Source: Escherichia coli
Lineage (GTDB): Bacteria; Pseudomonadota; Gammaproteobacteria; Enterobacterales; Enterobacteriaceae
Assembly (NCBI RefSeq): GCF_041886205.1
Contig: NZ_CP169031.1
DNA: 64,000 bases
Direction: 5' to 3' (one strand)
The notes under the pieces are model-generated. The model searched no databases and had not been told where the DNA came from. It was given only the letters and a program-made list of their open reading frames with translations. A program made the translations under genes and the position numbers. Position 1 is the stretch's first letter. Each line of letters begins with the position of its first letter. Below are positions 9,783 to 18,145 of this stretch, piece after piece.

Positions 9783-10070
9783 CAGTAAAATTCCTTGCTC
9801 CTTAAAAGGGGAGAGGGTTAATCTAGATATGCTAAGCATGGATATGGCCTCAGATTAATGTTAAGCGTCTTGCAGGACGCGTAATGTTATCTGGGGCTTT
9901 CTTCTGTTATTTGTTTGAGTGCTAGGCAGCAAAGAGAGCTAGCATTCATCAGGCAAATCTATCAATAAATAGCGTTAGTTTTTGTTGTGTGTATGTTTCT
10001 TTATTGTTATTGTGTTGTTTGTTTTTTGGACAACGCAATTCCTATAATCTATAGAATAAAGGAAGTATAT

Positions 10071-10358
10071 ATGGCTGATGTACGCATTACTTGCATTACC
10101 CTCTCCGGCTCGCAATCAATCCATGAGCATATTACTCATGTGGGAAGTCCTCAATTTAATACTAGCAATGGGAAATGGACTGTTGAGCAGGTAATTAATG
10201 CTATTGATAATAATCTCCATACATTCTATGTAACAGATAATGCAGGTAATCGTGTAGACGTTGGGGTTGTTAATCCTGGTAATGGTGGAAGGCAGTTTAT
10301 TAGAACGTATGCAGACAATCGATGGAATAATAATTTACTATCGCTACCAGTCTGTTAA
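10071..10358 (+). CDS. Small DUF3892-like protein
   Basis: 95 aa from MADVRITCI..., with an aaggaag RBS 5 nt upstream. The pattern ITHV...W...FYVTD...V.VV...G..FIRT..D...NNLLSLPVC matches my recollection of DUF3892 proteins. AT-rich leader. Confidence 0.4.
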   Translation: MADVRITCITLSGSQSIHEHITHVGSPQFNTSNGKWTVEQVINAIDNNLHTFYVTDNAGNRVDVGVVNPGNGGRQFIRTYADNRWNNNLLSLPVC

Positions 10359-10428: not shown

Positions 10429-11439
10429 CTATAAACTCTGAACAAGACGTTCGATTGCTGCACCATATCTTTCTAATGGTTCATTATTGATTTGTGGCTC
10501 AGTATCATGGATCTGATATCTGCCTGGTTTTATATCAAATAGAGGTCTTCCTAGATGGGAAGATACTATAGCTACGGAATGGTTATCTGGCACAGTAAAC
10601 GTTTTTAAATTTCCGCCTTGGAACGCTGTTGGTTTATTCGTCCGCAGATTTTCAGCTCTATCCCTGATTTCGTCGAACATTGCCGAAAACGCTTTACTTG
10701 CTCGTTTGTCATACTCTGTCGAACGATTAAAAACTAGAGAATGAATGACAGGAACCGCTAGACCAAACTGTTGACACCGATCGTAAAAGTTAACAGAACG
10801 ATAATCGTTTTGTACTCCAACGCCATAAACCAACTGGCTTAGGTTATCCACTGCTCGAGCCGAAGAACCATCACTTGAGCAAGGTATTATAATTGCATTT
10901 GCTGCTATCAGTGATAGTTCGGTATAGGCAGAGAAACTGGGGTTGCAATCAATAAAGCAAATGGTTTCTTCGATACCTTGTTGTTGTGCACATGCAACAA
11001 GCAAATCTCGTAGCCACAGGTGGATGCTTTTCCATGAGTCAACTGGTAAGTTTACGCTGCTTAACTGATTGATTACTTGCGCCTGAACTTCCAGGCTTGG
11101 GTCGCCTGCAATCAAAAATACATTGTCAGGGACATGTCCGTTAATTTCAGAGACATGAATTAAGAAACTTGTTTCTGAACCGGTAAGCATGTGGGGGCTG
11201 CGAGTTCTTCTGTCAAAGTACCCACCGACAGTTTTTCGTTGTTGAATTAAGCTCGCGAGGTTAGCAGCACCAGTACCGTTACCGCCGAGCAATATTTCAG
11301 ATAAGTTAGCCTGCGGGCACATATCTGCAAAAATAATACGCTTTTCTGGATTTTGCCTTGCGTATTCACAGGCCATAGCGAAAGATAAGTAGGTCTTTCC
11401 TACGCCACCTTTATTATTCCAAATAGCATACGATTTCAT
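10429..11439 (-). CDS. Orphan ParA/MinD-family P-loop ATPase with ~90-aa C-terminal extension
   Basis: Deviant Walker A (NNKGGVGKTY) near the N-terminus; likely start MKSYAIW at 11439 (track ORF extends to 11484). No partner ParB-like gene; separate from parAB at 1255-3428. Confidence 0.6.
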   Translation of the reverse strand: MKSYAIWNNKGGVGKTYLSFAMACEYARQNPEKRIIFADMCPQANLSEILLGGNGTGAANLASLIQQRKTVGGYFDRRTRSPHMLTGSETSFLIHVSEINGHVPDNVFLIAGDPSLEVQAQVINQLSSVNLPVDSWKSIHLWLRDLLVACAQQQGIEETICFIDCNPSFSAYTELSLIAANAIIIPCSSDGSSARAVDNLSQLVYGVGVQNDYRSVNFYDRCQQFGLAVPVIHSLVFNRSTEYDKRASKAFSAMFDEIRDRAENLRTNKPTAFQGGNLKTFTVPDNHSVAIVSSHLGRPLFDIKPGRYQIHDTEPQINNEPLERYGAAIERLVQSL

Positions 11440-11747
11440 GGTATCCCCGGCGTTATCTGCTGTTTGTGTGCCAGCATAAGTCATTATGCATCTCCATTAC
11501 TATCCATGAATTAAGTCAAAAAATATGTAAAAGTAGCAATGTATCACTCTTTTACTCATTATAAACGTTACAAGTTGTGATGGTTAGCTGTGTTTTTATC
11601 AGTACAAGTTTTGATCTGGCTTTGGGTTTTTATATATGGATATGTCTCAACGATGCCCTGCAAAAAGTGATCGCTAACTGTAAAAATCAGATTGCATCTC
11701 CGACCTCAAACTGAAAATGCCAGGTGACTCCAGATTAGAGCAATCTA

Positions 11748-12593
11748 TCACCCTCTGAATCCTGCCGGTATACCCCATTTTTCGTTATCTTTATTTTTGG
11801 CGAAAACCGCATTAAGAGCTTCGTTTACCGTCATGCAATGCGGCAGATTATCGAAGTTTGATATCCCGCTAATATCAGGAGAACGCTTGTTCTTCAGGTA
11901 AGTATATTTCCGCGCTGCCGCCTCTACTTTCTGCTTGAACTCATGTTTTTGAGCGCGTTTTTTGGATAACCGCAGATTGTCAGCCTTTGCTTTTGCCTCA
12001 GCGATCCATGAAGTCAATTTTTTGAGTCTGGTCGTTCCGGCACCGCCGGAAACTGATCTTTTTGTTTTTTTAATTTGTGACTTCTTATTCTTTATTGCCA
12101 CGTCATCCTGACAGGGGGAGGGGGTATCATTTTGACATGGGGGTGTGGATAAAAAATCAAATAAAGCCAATGTCTTAGCGAGAACAGCTTTAACCTTGGT
12201 TGCGGCTGAAGAGATCTTTAATTTGCTTTCAATTAGCGCATTTTTGGCTTGTTGAGCAAAGGCTAAAAAGGATGGTGTAAACCGGTACAGGTTAGCGCGG
12301 CGTTCACGGTGATCGCCGATAACAATCTCTACCGACAGGATTCCTTTGTTTACAGCTTCACGGAATGCGCGAACGACGGTTGATTGGCTATAACCAGTTT
12401 CTGCCGCGATCAGGCGGTGAGGCTTGTGAATGAAGTATTCACTGGTTGTTGCCGCGAGATTTGCACATTGCGACAGGATATGCCCGGCGCTACGGGATAG
12501 ACCGGAGTGTGTTACAAAGCAGGCCAATTCATAGCCAGAAAAAGTAAAATCGCTCATCGTTATACAGCTCAGGAAAGTGACTTTAGCCAGCAT
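11748..12593 (-). CDS. repL: Lytic replication protein RepL
   Basis: 281-aa ORF downstream of kilA in the ant-kilA-repL arrangement; size and sequence recalled as P1 RepL. Confidence 0.75.
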   Translation of the reverse strand: MLAKVTFLSCITMSDFTFSGYELACFVTHSGLSRSAGHILSQCANLAATTSEYFIHKPHRLIAAETGYSQSTVVRAFREAVNKGILSVEIVIGDHRERRANLYRFTPSFLAFAQQAKNALIESKLKISSAATKVKAVLAKTLALFDFLSTPPCQNDTPSPCQDDVAIKNKKSQIKKTKRSVSGGAGTTRLKKLTSWIAEAKAKADNLRLSKKRAQKHEFKQKVEAAARKYTYLKNKRSPDISGISNFDNLPHCMTVNEALNAVFAKNKDNEKWGIPAGFRG

Positions 12594-12622
12594 TACAATG
12601 CTGGTGGTTCTTACTACGTCTG

Positions 12623-13423
12623 TTAGCGCGTTGCCGCGACAGGTACCAGCACACCAGCATCAAGCAATCGCTTCATCAGCCACTGCTGACCTTTGCCGGT
12701 TATACGAGTCGTGAAAGAAATCCTGCTTCCATTGCTTGTATCGATCACGGTTTCTTTAAGGGTGAAATACCCACGGGATATGTATTCTTGTTTGGGGACG
12801 TTCCTGCGTTCACCGGTTGCGATCAGAATTCCGTTATCACGCAACCAGGTGAAGAGATAGTTTTGGCCCAGGCCGAGCACTTTGGCATAGTTGCCGATTA
12901 GAACCCCGCTGGCGGTAGCAACGCGTTCGGCGAATTCGACTTTAGGTGCATCCATAAGCATTTTTTGCTCCAGCCGTTGCTTTTGCTCTGCCAGGTCGGC
13001 AGCCAAACGGAGAGCTTCAGGGAGACTCTGCGGAATAGCAGGTTGTAATCTTCCGGCTCGATAGTCGATAAATGTCTGGTTTACCTTCAGCCGAAACGCG
13101 GGAGAAATCCAGCCTGCGTACTCCACTGCGAGCAATTCATGGGCAAAAGTGCCGCCGCCACGGCCTTCGAACGAAACTATGCAATTCTGCATAGTTTCTT
13201 TTTCAAGCTCTTCGATGAGCTGTTTGGCTGACAGCGTTCTTAGCCATTGAGCTGGCGCTTTATGGGCACCGAGTCCACTCGCTTTGTGTAGAGCATTAAG
13301 GTTGTAACGGCCAGCGCGGTCGGTCGTAATTTCAACACCACAAATAACAGGCAGAGTGGTTGAAGGATCGACATTTTGATGAAGGTTTGATATATTCATA
13401 TCCGCATTGAATGTTTGTTGCAT
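12623..13423 (-). CDS. kilA: KilA (KilA-N plus shared KilA-C/ANT domain)
   Basis: 266 aa; the C-terminal ~130 aa are clearly homologous to the Ant C-terminus (IPQSLPEALRLAADLAEQK... versus IPQTLPEALRLAAELAEQK...). Confidence 0.75.
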   Translation of the reverse strand: MQQTFNADMNISNLHQNVDPSTTLPVICGVEITTDRAGRYNLNALHKASGLGAHKAPAQWLRTLSAKQLIEELEKETMQNCIVSFEGRGGGTFAHELLAVEYAGWISPAFRLKVNQTFIDYRAGRLQPAIPQSLPEALRLAADLAEQKQRLEQKMLMDAPKVEFAERVATASGVLIGNYAKVLGLGQNYLFTWLRDNGILIATGERRNVPKQEYISRGYFTLKETVIDTSNGSRISFTTRITGKGQQWLMKRLLDAGVLVPVAATR

Positions 13424-13492
13424 TTTTTCTCCAAATTTGCATCAACCTTCAATCACCAGCTCGAAATGGTGATTCTTTGCACTTAGAAAACG

Positions 13493-13509
13493 AAATTTAT
13501 TAGAGCAAA
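13493..13509. promoter_or_regulatory. C1 operator-like site (aaatttattagagcaaa)
   Basis: Match to the asymmetric 17-bp P1 C1 operator consensus ATTGCTCTAATAAATTT (reverse complement), upstream of kilA-repL. Confidence 0.6.
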
Positions 13510-13554
13510 TTTTTCTGACCCGATCCAGATCGGGTTGGACGATCTGCTCAGAAA

Positions 13555-13581
13555 CCTGCCAGTTTGCTGGCAGGTTTTTTT
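13555..13581. terminator. Hairpin with T-run between ant and kilA
   Basis: cctgccag-tttg-ctggcagg followed by ttttttt on the plus strand; a second hairpin lies at 13520-13535. Confidence 0.4.
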
Positions 13582-13587
13582 CTTTTG

Positions 13588-14634
13588 TTAACCTATTGCT
13601 ACTGGTTTTAACAAACCAGCATCAAGTAGCTTGCGAGTTAACCACTGCTGGCCTTTACCCGTTAATTGGGGCGTCAGCCGTATCTGGTAGCCATTTTCAT
13701 CATCCAGCACCACTTCTTTCACCGTGAAATACCCGGCGTTAATGTACTGCTGGCGCGGTACGTTTTTGCGCGCACCAAAAGCCATGAGAATGCCGTTCTG
13801 GCGCAACCATGAGAAAAGGGCGTTTTGCTTAAGTCCAACGACCTTTGCAAAGTTCCCGATCAGGATTCCATTAGCCGCTGATACCCGGTCGGCAAAATCG
13901 ACTTTAGGGGCTGCGGCCACCAGCTGTTGTTCCAACTGCATTTTCTGTTCTGCCAACTCGGCAGCCAGGCGTAGAGCTTCTGGTAATGTTTGGGGGATCG
14001 ATGGGGTAGGGGAGTTTGCCTGCTGCAATTCTTCCAGTTTGTCGATCAGCGAACGGCGGACCGCTTTCGATTCGCGAGCAGCAACGCGCAGGGCTTGTTT
14101 GTATGTCATTACTATAACTACCTGATCCGCTCCACCTTTTTTCTTATCCATAGGGGTTACGAAGATTTCGTAACCCTCCCCATCAAGCTCATCCTTAACT
14201 CTGGCAATGAAATCATTGTTGCGAACTGGTTTTTCGCTACATAATTTCCGTGCCTCATTGACCATCTTTAACAGTGTCAGGCTGTCGATTGTGTCTCCGG
14301 TGTTGGGGATAATATTCACGGCTGGTGCTGGCGTAGCTGACGTAACAGGTGCTGGTTTTTCAACATTCAAATTATTACCGGTCATTCTATGTGCCTCCTT
14401 TCTCATTTCTGCTGCCACTGTTGCGTAACGTAGACGTCCTTGTTCAATCAAATAATCCCTGATCTCGGCTATCAGTAGCCTGTTGATCACAGCCTTATCT
14501 GTTCGGGTATAAAAACGCCTGGTTATCATGAAATAGTTAGCAATTGCGCCGGGGATCTCCCGTGTCGGCATACAGGCAGTATGCAGGGCGATCGCTTCGG
14601 CTATGTCATTACGGGTGACGAGAGGTTTTTTCAT
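13588..14634 (-). CDS. ant1: Antirepressor Ant
   Basis: 348-aa ORF downstream of icd with the ANT/KilA-C C-terminal domain. Confidence 0.75.
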   Translation of the reverse strand: MKKPLVTRNDIAEAIALHTACMPTREIPGAIANYFMITRRFYTRTDKAVINRLLIAEIRDYLIEQGRLRYATVAAEMRKEAHRMTGNNLNVEKPAPVTSATPAPAVNIIPNTGDTIDSLTLLKMVNEARKLCSEKPVRNNDFIARVKDELDGEGYEIFVTPMDKKKGGADQVVIVMTYKQALRVAARESKAVRRSLIDKLEELQQANSPTPSIPQTLPEALRLAAELAEQKMQLEQQLVAAAPKVDFADRVSAANGILIGNFAKVVGLKQNALFSWLRQNGILMAFGARKNVPRQQYINAGYFTVKEVVLDDENGYQIRLTPQLTGKGQQWLTRKLLDAGLLKPVAIG

Positions 14635-14852
14635 AAACCCCCCTGAACGTCGGCAGAGAAGGGGAGGCTCCAGTAACTAAGTGAATTGCGCGAGTTAGTT
14701 GAAAAACGGGCAGTAAAAATGCAGGGGCCATCAGGCAATTGAGAGCGTGCTTCGTCTTCTGTTGCAGCGATAACGAAGTGATAGTGGTGTTTTTTACAGG
14801 AATAGAAACGCCAGATGAATTCTTGGCGTGCGCAAGGATTGGCATTAACCAT
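14631..14852 (-). CDS. icd: Icd (cell division interference protein)
   Basis: 73-aa ORF overlapping the ant start by 4 nt; GAGG RBS 7 nt upstream; immediately downstream of the c4 antisense region. Confidence 0.65.
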   Translation of the reverse strand: MVNANPCARQEFIWRFYSCKKHHYHFVIAATEDEARSQLPDGPCIFTARFSTNSRNSLSYWSLPFSADVQGGL

Positions 14853-14899
14853 AGTTACGGCCTCGTAAGTTGATAAACAACCTGCGACCCGCTGCTAAA

Positions 14900-14990
14900 C
14901 AGGTGGCAGGACGTGACGGGGTTAGCAGACTGGCACTTACGAAACCAGCAGGCCGAAGCCTCCCCATCACGCCCCACCATAATTCGGGCG
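14900..14990 (-). ncRNA. c4: c4-like antisense repressor RNA (approximate bounds)
   Basis: Between a C1 operator-like site (15165) and icd. The transcript would contain cugcuaaccc (14912-14921), complementary to two gguuuagcag target copies, one at 14888-14897 near the icd RBS and one at 15060-15069. Confidence 0.45.
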
Positions 14991-15164
14991 TAACGTGGTT
15001 TACGGACACAAAAATACCGCAATATCGGAAATCTGCGGTTGTCCGCGTAAGTATTCAGGCTGCTAAACCCGGTCGCAGAATTTGCTACGACGGCGGAACT
15101 ATAAGCCTGAACGATTAAAAGGTCAATATGATGCGAAAAGATAGCATTCGCGACTTAAAAATAC

Positions 15165-15181
15165 AAATTTATTAGAGCATT
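15165..15181. promoter_or_regulatory. C1 operator-like site (aaatttattagagcatt)
   Basis: Near-consensus operator at the start of the ImmI operon. Confidence 0.6.
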
Positions 15182-15277
15182 GCTTGTTTAATAAATGCAC
15201 AATTGGATCTAATAACCTCTTTTTTTTAAAGGCGAAAATATGTACCCTAAATGAGTTATAAGGCAGGTGAGGTTATA

Positions 15278-15769
15278 ATGAGAAAACTATTACTACCGTT
15301 ATTATTTATGGCTGGGACTGTTAATGCAGCATCAAGCGTGAAGGAGATTTGTACCGATTATACGAAATACCTTGGGCACGTTTACGGCTTTGCTGTCAGT
15401 CAAGACGAATCCATGCGCAAGAAGTTACTGTCAGATATGAAACGTCTTAAACTTTCTGAAGCGATGGTGCAGCAAGAACTATATAAAGTCGCAACCAACG
15501 AAAATGCTAAATATCAATATTCTCGCCTATTAAATCCCGACGCAAACGAGATCAATCGAAGCACTTTCGATTATATGGTAAAGGCATGCGAAACCGCTCC
15601 TGATTTTGCTATCCCTAGCTGGGGTGTGCTGGTGGCGAGCAATGCCGTTAATAAAGAAGATGTTGGAAGAAATGGCATTGACTCAATAAGAAATGCCCCA
15701 GGAATGCGCCATCAAAACGTACAGGGTACGCTTGAAGAACGAGCCAGGGGGCCGGGTGTAGCCCCATAA
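15278..15769 (+). CDS. Secreted hypothetical protein (Sec signal peptide)
   Basis: Start MRKLLLPLLFMAGTVNA with an AxA cleavage motif; 2 Cys in the mature part; the C-terminus shares a GMR..VQGTLEERARG motif with Sit. AT-rich gene. Confidence 0.55.
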   Translation: MRKLLLPLLFMAGTVNAASSVKEICTDYTKYLGHVYGFAVSQDESMRKKLLSDMKRLKLSEAMVQQELYKVATNENAKYQYSRLLNPDANEINRSTFDYMVKACETAPDFAIPSWGVLVASNAVNKEDVGRNGIDSIRNAPGMRHQNVQGTLEERARGPGVAP

Positions 15770-15857
15770 TTTTATAAATAATATTAAATTCTCTGGGCAT
15801 AGTGGATCTAACAATATGGACTATGCCTATAATATCTAAAAACAAAAGGATAAAAAT

Positions 15858-16364
15858 ATGAAATTGTATAAGTCATTGTATAGCTTTTTATTAATGTCCT
15901 CTTTTCTGCCATTATCAGCAATGGCAGGTTCTACCGTTTGGACGGTAGGAGGTGAGCAAGGGTGGAGAGAAATCTCTGCAACCAATGACGATGGTTACAC
16001 AATTAACTTTTCTTGTGATGCTGGAGCAAGGGAAGGTTCAGAAGATCATATCGCTGGAAGAAATTTGTATGTAAGCGGAGGAAAAGAGAATGCCGATTTT
16101 TCTACACGCGACACAATATCACGTAAAGCAGATGTAATTACTTTAATTGTTGGCCCGGATAGTTTTAATATTGGCACGCAAAACACTGCTCCTAATCGTA
16201 GGGAATGGTATTCATTTTGGAAGGCAGTGTCATCTACAAATGAAAAAAACATAGATGTATATATCGGTTCGAGTCGAATCACATCATTCACTCTGGATGG
16301 TATTTCCAGTATTTATACAGAAGCTAAAAATGACGGGTGTTTAAAACAAGATGACGGTGAATAA
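15858..16364 (+). CDS. Secreted hypothetical protein (Sec signal peptide)
   Basis: N-terminus MKLYKSLYSFLLMSSFLPLSAMA; 168 aa; AT-rich; overlaps the next gene by 14 nt. Confidence 0.55.
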   Translation: MKLYKSLYSFLLMSSFLPLSAMAGSTVWTVGGEQGWREISATNDDGYTINFSCDAGAREGSEDHIAGRNLYVSGGKENADFSTRDTISRKADVITLIVGPDSFNIGTQNTAPNRREWYSFWKAVSSTNEKNIDVYIGSSRITSFTLDGISSIYTEAKNDGCLKQDDGE

Positions 16365-17424
16365 AGTGAAGGATATTAAACACATTTCGCTTAACTCTAA
16401 TAATAAAGCTGAAGGCACTGCCTTTTATGATTATTTAAATGAAATTAAAGGAGTGAGGCATAAAAAGATAAGTGGTTTATTAAATTCAGAATATATTTAC
16501 AAGAGTTTAGTTAAACAGTTTGGAACAGTTAAAAAACAAGAATTAATTAATGATTGTTTTCGAAAAGAACTTGAGTCTTTACCAAAAGTTACGAGAATTG
16601 CACACCAGTTTCGTGAACAAATGGTATTTTTACAGAAACAGTATCAGGCGGCTTTTCCCAGTGATGCAAATGAGCATATTCAAATAATTAAAAATCAAGC
16701 TGAAATGGCTATGCCGTTACGAAAACACTCAGAAGCCATTAATAAGATAGCTGGCTTAAATAATATGGAGGAGGTATTTAAAGAATTACACTCTAATATA
16801 AATTACAAAATTAAGATAAGCAAAGATATTAAAGAAATAATAAAGCAGTATAATAAAACAAGAAGTGTATTATTAGAGCAAGTAGTAGAGCTTGGGCTTG
16901 TTACTATCGCGCAGGCTTATGCTAATGATTCTATAAAATCAGCGCATACCGAAAGTGAGCATCAAAACAAAGGATTTAATAAATCTAGTTCGACGTTTTT
17001 TGATTCATTTAAGGCGCTTCCTTCTCCTATTCAGATCTTCCTTCTGTGGATTTTTTATCAAGTGGTGCTTGGCGCTATAACTGATTATGCAAAAGAAAAG
17101 ACATTATCGCAAATTTACAAGATGGAATCATATCTTCTATCTCTAAATGAGGATAAGCCAATATCTAAGCAAAAGCTAACACAAGAAAATAAAGATATTC
17201 AGTGGGAGGATCTTAATAATTTTAGAGCTATAACAGGTGATAACGTAAGGTTGCATGTCGGCCCTTCTTTAAATAGTGAAGTGATTGAATGCATTGGCAA
17301 AAACACAATTGTTGCTATTTTAGATAAGAAAGATCGTCAATGGCTTTACGTGCAGGTTAAATCAGGGGATGAGTTTATTACTGGTTGGATTACACGAACA
17401 TACACAAAGCCTCTTAAGGCTTGA
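16351..17424 (+). CDS. Membrane protein with C-terminal SH3b-like domain
   Basis: 357 aa; predicted single TM helix (IQIFLLWIFYQVVLGAI); C-terminal RLHVGPSLNSEVI...GWITRTY resembles bacterial SH3b. Lys/Asn-rich, AT-rich codon usage. Confidence 0.55.
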   Translation: MTVNKVKDIKHISLNSNNKAEGTAFYDYLNEIKGVRHKKISGLLNSEYIYKSLVKQFGTVKKQELINDCFRKELESLPKVTRIAHQFREQMVFLQKQYQAAFPSDANEHIQIIKNQAEMAMPLRKHSEAINKIAGLNNMEEVFKELHSNINYKIKISKDIKEIIKQYNKTRSVLLEQVVELGLVTIAQAYANDSIKSAHTESEHQNKGFNKSSSTFFDSFKALPSPIQIFLLWIFYQVVLGAITDYAKEKTLSQIYKMESYLLSLNEDKPISKQKLTQENKDIQWEDLNNFRAITGDNVRLHVGPSLNSEVIECIGKNTIVAILDKKDRQWLYVQVKSGDEFITGWITRTYTKPLKA

Positions 17425-17554
17425 ATTTTATCTCCGCATCTTCGGATTGGGTGTTGATGACGATGTGCTACTTGAAGCACTTGAGTTGTTTTAACGTAGT
17501 ATCTGAAATGTGTAGACTGACCGGTAACAAATGACAACTCGTAGAATCGGTTAA

Positions 17555-18145
<591 letters not shown>

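Follow-up and report, generated by a model that had tools for sequence, protein, structure and literature searches.

The question raised by this locus is how two neighbouring genes came to encode proteins that close with the same C-terminal block and open with different N-terminal domains. The genes, kilA and ant, lie in a 64,000-nucleotide stretch of Escherichia coli DNA (contig NZ_CP169031.1, assembly GCF_041886205.1; hereafter the window), which is identified from its sequence as a P1/P7-type phage-plasmid (Punavirus). The region singled out by the original prediction, 12623-14634, was found to correspond exactly to two minus-strand open reading frames (ORFs), 12623-13423 for KilA and 13588-14634 for Ant1, with a shorter product, Ant2, read from an internal start of the latter. 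The C-terminal modules of the two proteins are very probably old paralogues attached to N-terminal modules of different families, within a wider pool that exchanges N-modules before a common unit of a long helix plus KilAC.

KilA and Ant1 were compared by BLASTP, giving 51% identity across 200 aligned residues (E=3e-66), and over the last 143/142 residues of KilA/Ant1 89/143 positions (62%) were identical, with one one-residue gap at the extreme C-terminus. Local alignment of the C-terminal parts scored 481, against 28.9 +/- 5.2 (maximum 56) in 500 shuffles, and the N-terminal parts (KilA 1-123, Ant1 1-206) showed no similarity, scoring 26 against 26.9 +/- 4.2 in shuffles. Chance or compositional similarity of the two ends was ruled out by the shuffle test; the pairwise alignment lies far beyond chance, so the close match of the C-termini claimed by the original prediction stands, and an identity below significance is excluded. 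The consensus string offered with that claim was essentially right, except that the stretch written as ER..NVP really reads G-E/A-R-R/K-NVP and that the L preceding TGKGQQWL is not shared by the two; the block length, put at ~130 residues, was slightly short, the alignment running over ~137 residues from IPQ (KilA 130, Ant1 213) to the C-termini, and the shared span comes to about 137-143 residues. The block opens at the motif IPQ(S/T)LPEALRLAA, whereas Pfam PF03374 starts ~22 residues later and leaves the conserved junction motif and the long helix of the P1 unit unmodelled. The unit common to both proteins, a long helix plus KilAC, thus extends beyond the Pfam domain.

Pfam placed the ANT/KilAC domain (PF03374, gathering score 25.3) in KilA at 112.7 bits (residues 152-254, 12662-12970) and in Ant1 at 107.4 bits (residues 235-337, 13624-13932). 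Only KilA passed the threshold for KilA-N (PF04383), the N-terminal part of Ant1/Ant2 failing to reach it, and outside KilAC no Pfam match was obtained for Ant1 even at E<=10, including its 83-residue extension and the following domain, here termed Ant-N. In PHROGs, Ant1 residues ~111-245 match phrog_1726 'anti-repressor'. The claim that the N-terminal domains differ was borne out, with no N-terminal sequence similarity by Pfam or shuffles, and the domain annotation suggested as a check (KilA-N, ANT) gave KilAC in both proteins and KilA-N in KilA alone. Ant1 residues 108-213 were used as query in an exhaustive HMMER search, which yielded an Ant-N family of 345 representative clusters (E<=1e-3), mostly proteins of 220-260 amino acids (aa) with the domain at the N-terminus; KilAC was present in only 31 of 83 sampled members, and Ant-N is therefore itself a mobile module, independent of KilAC. 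Most KilA-N proteins retrieved with the KilA N-domain as query were without KilAC. A PDB sequence search with both proteins and the Ant-N profile returned nothing useful. No PADLOC match was obtained for Ant; KilA residues 63-118 (13070-13237), part of KilA-N, gave a partial match to the PADLOC candidate defence model PDC-S22 (E=6.7e-10), and published titles and abstracts place KilA-N domains in defence proteins also, for example BstA.

The families of the two N-domains were compared as profiles using hhalign. Ant-N against KilA-N was not significant (P=0.057 local, 0.89 global), and KilA-N against Rha gave nothing. The Ant-N profile aligned end to end with the N-domains of Roi proteins (P=0.0013, 95 collinear columns). 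Sub-threshold matches to Phage_pRha (PF09669, gathering score 29.9 bits) were seen in 7 of 32 Ant-N members (best E=0.0036), among which no other family recurred in more than two; Ant itself had no Pfam match to PF09669. The N-domains of KilA and Ant are unrelated at the sequence level, and the comparisons point to Ant-N as a family of its own, with a hint of likeness to Rha.

The age of the two copies was gauged from the DNA blocks 12638-13054 and 13600-14016, which are 61% identical overall and 68%, 78%, and 37% identical at codon positions 1, 2, and 3. The proportion of synonymous differences is saturated (pS=0.80), that of nonsynonymous differences is 0.26 (pN), no identical run exceeds 12 nt, and sliding nucleotide identity ranges over 0.52-0.72 with no high-identity or conversion tract. 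By these measures the two C-modules are old paralogues under purifying selection.

Exchange of N-modules is directly visible in relatives of P1, in line with the domain shuffling that the original prediction had read into the pair. Ant-N, ORF6N, KilA-N, and Rha-like modules were found before the same block, at the one fixed junction IPQ(S/T)LPEALRLAA. The protein P0080 (464 aa; L008-L010, 4001-5395), present on 13 P1-like contigs in an otherwise normal icd-ant-kilA-repL order, is Ant1 with ORF6N (PF10543) inserted between Ant-N and IPQTLPEALRLAA. Two related contigs (L006, 3005-5750; L007, 1538-4283) carry three antirepressor-type genes in a tandem array, encoding a Rha protein (237 aa), a 371-aa protein with the Ant1-type 83-residue extension, ORF6N, and helix plus KilAC, and a 249-aa protein (P0143) with Ant-N and helix plus KilAC, followed by a PrlF/YhaV toxin-antitoxin pair; neither kilA nor repL is present at the array position. 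In Roi of lambdoid phages (HK022/HK542, Stx phages), a weak Phage_pRha domain precedes the same helix plus KilAC block, which has 59-62% identity to each of the two P1 copies (trimmed alignment) and the junction motif IP(K/Q)TLPEALRLAA, matching the P1 pair; among sequence relatives of Ant-N, the Roi N-domain comes first, although the likeness is weak. Roi differs from the P1 genes in its place in the nin region, in having no Ant1-type extension, and in having no antirepressor role annotated. A Xenorhabdus KilA-N protein, P0317, has IPQSLPEALRLAADLAEQK and then a more divergent KilAC.

Eight genes were examined at the junction, and in each of them a short linker, itself not conserved, closes the N-module right before the motif. 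Over the 60-nt junction, nucleotide identity between genes is 62-77% and does not exceed the level across the remainder of the block, which rules out the junction as a recombination hotspot at the DNA level; since the motif is kept as protein and not as DNA, it is taken as a functional boundary instead.

AlphaFold2 models were obtained for Ant2 and KilA, with predicted local distance difference test (pLDDT) scores of 88.1 and 84.3, respectively. Both have a long helix at 134-170/171, followed by a helix-turn-helix, a beta-hairpin, a short helix, a long beta-hairpin, and a terminal helix, and the residue numbers of these C-module elements agree within one residue between the two. Both models match the same MerR-type winged helix-turn-helix, Par, RacA, and excisionase chains, and the models predict KilAC/ANT to be a MerR/excisionase-like winged helix-turn-helix with beta-hairpins. 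In the N-domains, the two models have the same secondary-structure order, b-a-a-b-b-a-a (b, strand; a, helix), and both match APSES/KilA-N structures.

The two are well-known early genes under separate regulation, each product consisting of an N-module and the shared helix plus KilAC module. By analogy with the proteins described below, the N-module most likely provides specificity and the C-module a common activity: the N-module would determine the target, that of Ant binding the C1 repressor as an Ant1/Ant2 complex and KilA-N binding DNA, and the common C-module would serve oligomerisation through the long helix and/or a host-directed or toxic activity. The P1 and P7 record annotations (NC_005856, AF503408) describe an Ant1/Ant2 complex with C1 and killing of the host upon kilA expression, and inactivation of C1 by Ant1/Ant2 is attributed to Riedel et al. 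1993, as cited in PMC9043618. According to papers citing Iyer, Koonin & Aravind 2002, KilAC is a mobile domain that takes its name from the P1 KilA C-terminus, with known fusions to KilA-N, Bro-N, Rha, AntA, and ORF6N domains. In Listeria phi10403S AriS, KilAC alone inhibits the SOS response and the N-domain regulates phage genes (PMC9043618); the KilA-C part of S. aureus phi11 Gp07 alone causes filamentation (PMC5944126); and A. baylyi CreP blocks division and causes filamentation, its interaction with FtsZ having been examined by co-immunoprecipitation (bioRxiv 10.1101/2024.01.05.574328). AriS, Gp07, and CreP share with the P1 pair the C-terminal domain family and the variable N-modules, and their KilAC part is active alone. 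For P1 KilAC itself, the candidate roles are binding to C1 or to DNA and an activity directed at FtsZ or RecA.

To place the C-modules among their relatives, the KilA block was searched by tblastn against 50,697 phage records, 973 of which matched; the closest matches outside P1 were the Roi proteins of HK542 and of Stx phages, which are 63-67% identical across residues 7-136. In a trimmed alignment, identities were 62% for KilA-Ant, 61% for KilA-Roi, 62% for Ant-Roi, and 70% for Ant-P0143, and a neighbour-joining tree placed KilA beside (Ant, P0143) with 84% bootstrap support and Roi as their sister group (97%). Three points weigh against the account of old paralogous C-modules behind exchanged N-modules of different families. 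The clade of KilA and Ant has only 84% bootstrap, and the KilA-Ant, KilA-Roi, and Ant-Roi identities are nearly tied; the N-domains may be related after all, as the models share a fold order and APSES/KilA-N structure matches; and the division of labour proposed above draws on analogy with AriS, Gp07, and CreP, which are only about 35-42% identical in KilAC (a tblastn figure for the Gram-positive phage domains, with CreP outside that comparison).

The alternative that survives best is that both KilAC genes entered the P1 lineage separately, from an enterobacterial antirepressor/Roi pool. Such an origin would fit the closeness of the KilA block to Roi of HK542 and Stx phages, the near-equal trimmed identities, the grouping of P0143, Ant2-like and of non-P1 type, with Ant, and the location of kilA and ant in different operons; the tree, in which KilA joins (Ant, P0143) with Roi outside, and the direct adjacency of the two genes speak against it, and we regard it as unlikely while giving it serious weight. 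The C-module of KilA is, in sequence, about as close to lambdoid Roi (59-67%, varying with the homologue and the span compared) as to Ant, so that a local duplication is only moderately supported; by the tree, a duplication in the P1 lineage or among its near relatives is favoured, though not firmly. The word 'duplicated' in the original prediction is thus sound as to a real shared block of old paralogues, and less so as to a local duplication.

A second alternative dispenses with shuffling in the making of the pair: Ant2 and KilA would be collinear, full-length paralogues from a whole-gene tandem duplication, their N-domains homologous but diverged past recognition. The ant2 product is one residue shorter than KilA (265 and 266 aa), the residue numbers of their domain boundaries coincide, the order of secondary-structure elements is identical in the N-domains, and Foldseek aligned Ant2 with two-domain viral antirepressors, some of them named KilA, over ~200-265 columns. 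This origin is nonetheless improbable, given that the Ant-N and KilA-N profiles do not match significantly, that Ant-N leans to Rha/Roi N-domains and KilA-N shows nothing with Rha, and that the relatives display real N-module exchange. Taken further, it would make Ant2 and KilA collinear same-length paralogues with a KilA-N/Rha-type N-domain, long helix, and KilAC, Ant-N being a divergent KilA-N/Rha branch; the shared module might then allow hetero-oligomers or competition for one target, and KilA might be a second antirepressor or host-shut-off component, swappable with Ant2. We hold this extended proposal to be distinctly doubtful.

Recent duplication or ongoing gene conversion keeping the two ends alike, to which the adjacency and same orientation of kilA and ant and the repeat spacing of 962 nt might be thought to point, is ruled out with near certainty by the codon-position identities and saturated pS, the short identical runs, the lack of a conversion tract, and a junction motif kept as protein rather than DNA. 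The account of old paralogous C-modules in a pool of exchanged N-modules is accordingly preferred, and the features of the locus are collected in Table 1.

Table 1. Features of the icd-ant-kilA-repL region, in window coordinates.
Feature	Position	Strand	Basis or remark
repL	11748-12593	minus	directly after kilA
kilA coding sequence, 266 aa	12623-13423	minus	ORF; heads the kilA-repL operon; named kilA in the P1 and P7 annotations
KilA copy of shared block, residues 130-266	12626-13036	minus	junction motif IPQSLPEALRLAA, long helix, KilAC
KilA-N domain (PF04383), KilA residues 27-123	13055-13345	minus	76.2 bits, gathering score 23.8
Antisense promoter PaskilA/P53as, in kilA 5' end	13368-13396	plus	TCGACA-17-TATATT, 10/12 matches, extended -10 TG; at the P1 PaskilA position
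ant-kilA spacer, 164 bp	13424-13587	minus	hairpin, three GATC (Dam) sites, promoter, C1 operator; transferred from NC_005856
C1 operator Op53/OrepL	~13493-13509		transferred from P1 annotation
PkilA/P53 promoter, sigma-70	~13499-13527	minus	transferred from P1 annotation
Terminator-like hairpin with T-run, strong	13550-13579	plus (terminator)	hairpin search; ~180 nt downstream of the antisense promoter
ant1 coding sequence, 348 aa	13588-14634	minus	ORF; annotated ant1 in P1/P7 records
ant2, 265 aa	13588-14385	minus	in-frame internal start, Met84 of Ant1; P7/P1 annotation transferred by coordinate offset
Ant copy of shared block, Ant1 residues 213-348	13591-13998	minus	IPQTLPEALRLAA, long helix, KilAC
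Ant-N domain, Ant1 residues ~111-207	14014-14304	minus	phrog_1726 'anti-repressor', E=5.6e-25
Ant1-specific N-terminal extension, residues 1-83	14386-14634	minus	kept in the 371-aa ORF6N-KilAC protein of L006
icd	14631-14852	minus	stop codon shares 4 nt (ATGA, 14631-14634) with the ant1 ATG

The locus was compared with the P1 and P7 records, which have the same genes in the same icd-ant-kilA-repL order. The nucleotide match over 11500-15200 is 98.5% to P7 and 95.6% to P1. KilA is identical at 264/266 residues to P1 KilA and 265/266 to P7 KilA, and was assigned as the P1 orthologue by this near-identity and by its place as first gene of the C1-controlled kilA-repL operon. Ant1, identical at 347/348 residues to P7 Ant1 and 318/351 to P1 Ant1, was assigned together with Ant2 by near-identity, the place downstream of c4-icd, the overlap with the icd stop, and the internal ant2 start, whose ATG at 14385 is preceded by an AAGGAGG Shine-Dalgarno at a distance of 8 nt. 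No difference of substance from the P1/P7 genes was found, and the ant allele is of the P7 type. A search for full-length Ant1 homologues returned almost exclusively variants >90% identical, including an identical protein recorded from an E. coli contig, and also exposed the ORF6N-insertion variant P0080.

Outside a ~240-bp patch at 14062-14300 (minus, inside Ant-N), the ant gene of the window is 97-100% identical to that of P1; within the patch, which ends ~45 bp before the shared block, identity falls to 40-77%. By protein part, 97/126 residues are identical in Ant-N, and 81/83 and 140/142 in the flanks, so the patch is, from the sequence comparison, a mosaic replacement inside the Ant-N domain. 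Proteins of 417-421 aa named 'Icd-like' (P0055, P0082, P0118-P0120), ~72 aa longer than Ant1, were seen on some P1-like contigs and may be icd and ant1 fused, or merged by gene call; in the window, icd and ant1 overlap by ATGA.

The further claim that both genes belong to the ImmI operon did not hold. ImmI is c4-icd-ant, and kilA heads the adjacent kilA-repL operon: in the P1 annotation, kilA has its own PkilA/P53 promoter, C1 operator, and antisense promoter, and a hairpin lies between ant and kilA. On this basis kilA would not be part of the ImmI transcription unit, although the sequence leaves room for read-through from ant. In a 221-nt alignment (13400-13620), no position separates the window from P1, and the two columns that vary do so in P7 alone; since the spacer is the same as in P1, the P53/Op53 control region is taken as the same. 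Together, the plus-strand promoter and hairpin agree with the antisense RNA known from P1 (P53as/PaskilA), which controls the lytic replicon.

Several features were noted around the locus. Downstream of repL, a 351-aa ParA/MinD-like ATPase (10429-11484, minus; AAA_31 and CbiA matches) occupies the place of rlfA/rlfB (rapA/rapB) in P1/P7, and the P7 nucleotide match stops at ~11734. At 9987-10358 (plus), an ORF of 123 aa carries a DUF3892 domain (E=3.6e-15). Upstream of the c4 promoter region, at the place of P1 simABC, three ORFs of 172, 168, and 357 aa (15251-17424, plus) lie in a low-GC region (37% for 16001-18000); the first two have signal-peptide-like N-termini, the 357-aa ORF ends in a bacterial SH3_3 domain, and none of the three had a PADLOC match.

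Knowledge of the P1 genes dates from 1989-2004, and the domain shared by KilA and Ant is itself already known, the two being the founding pair of the KilAC/ANT family, so the importance of the present finding is little beyond correct annotation. Its additions are modest: the precise limits of the shared unit, the ancient age of the two copies and the purifying selection on them, the N-module swaps in the P1 lineage, and the hint that Ant-N may be Rha-like.

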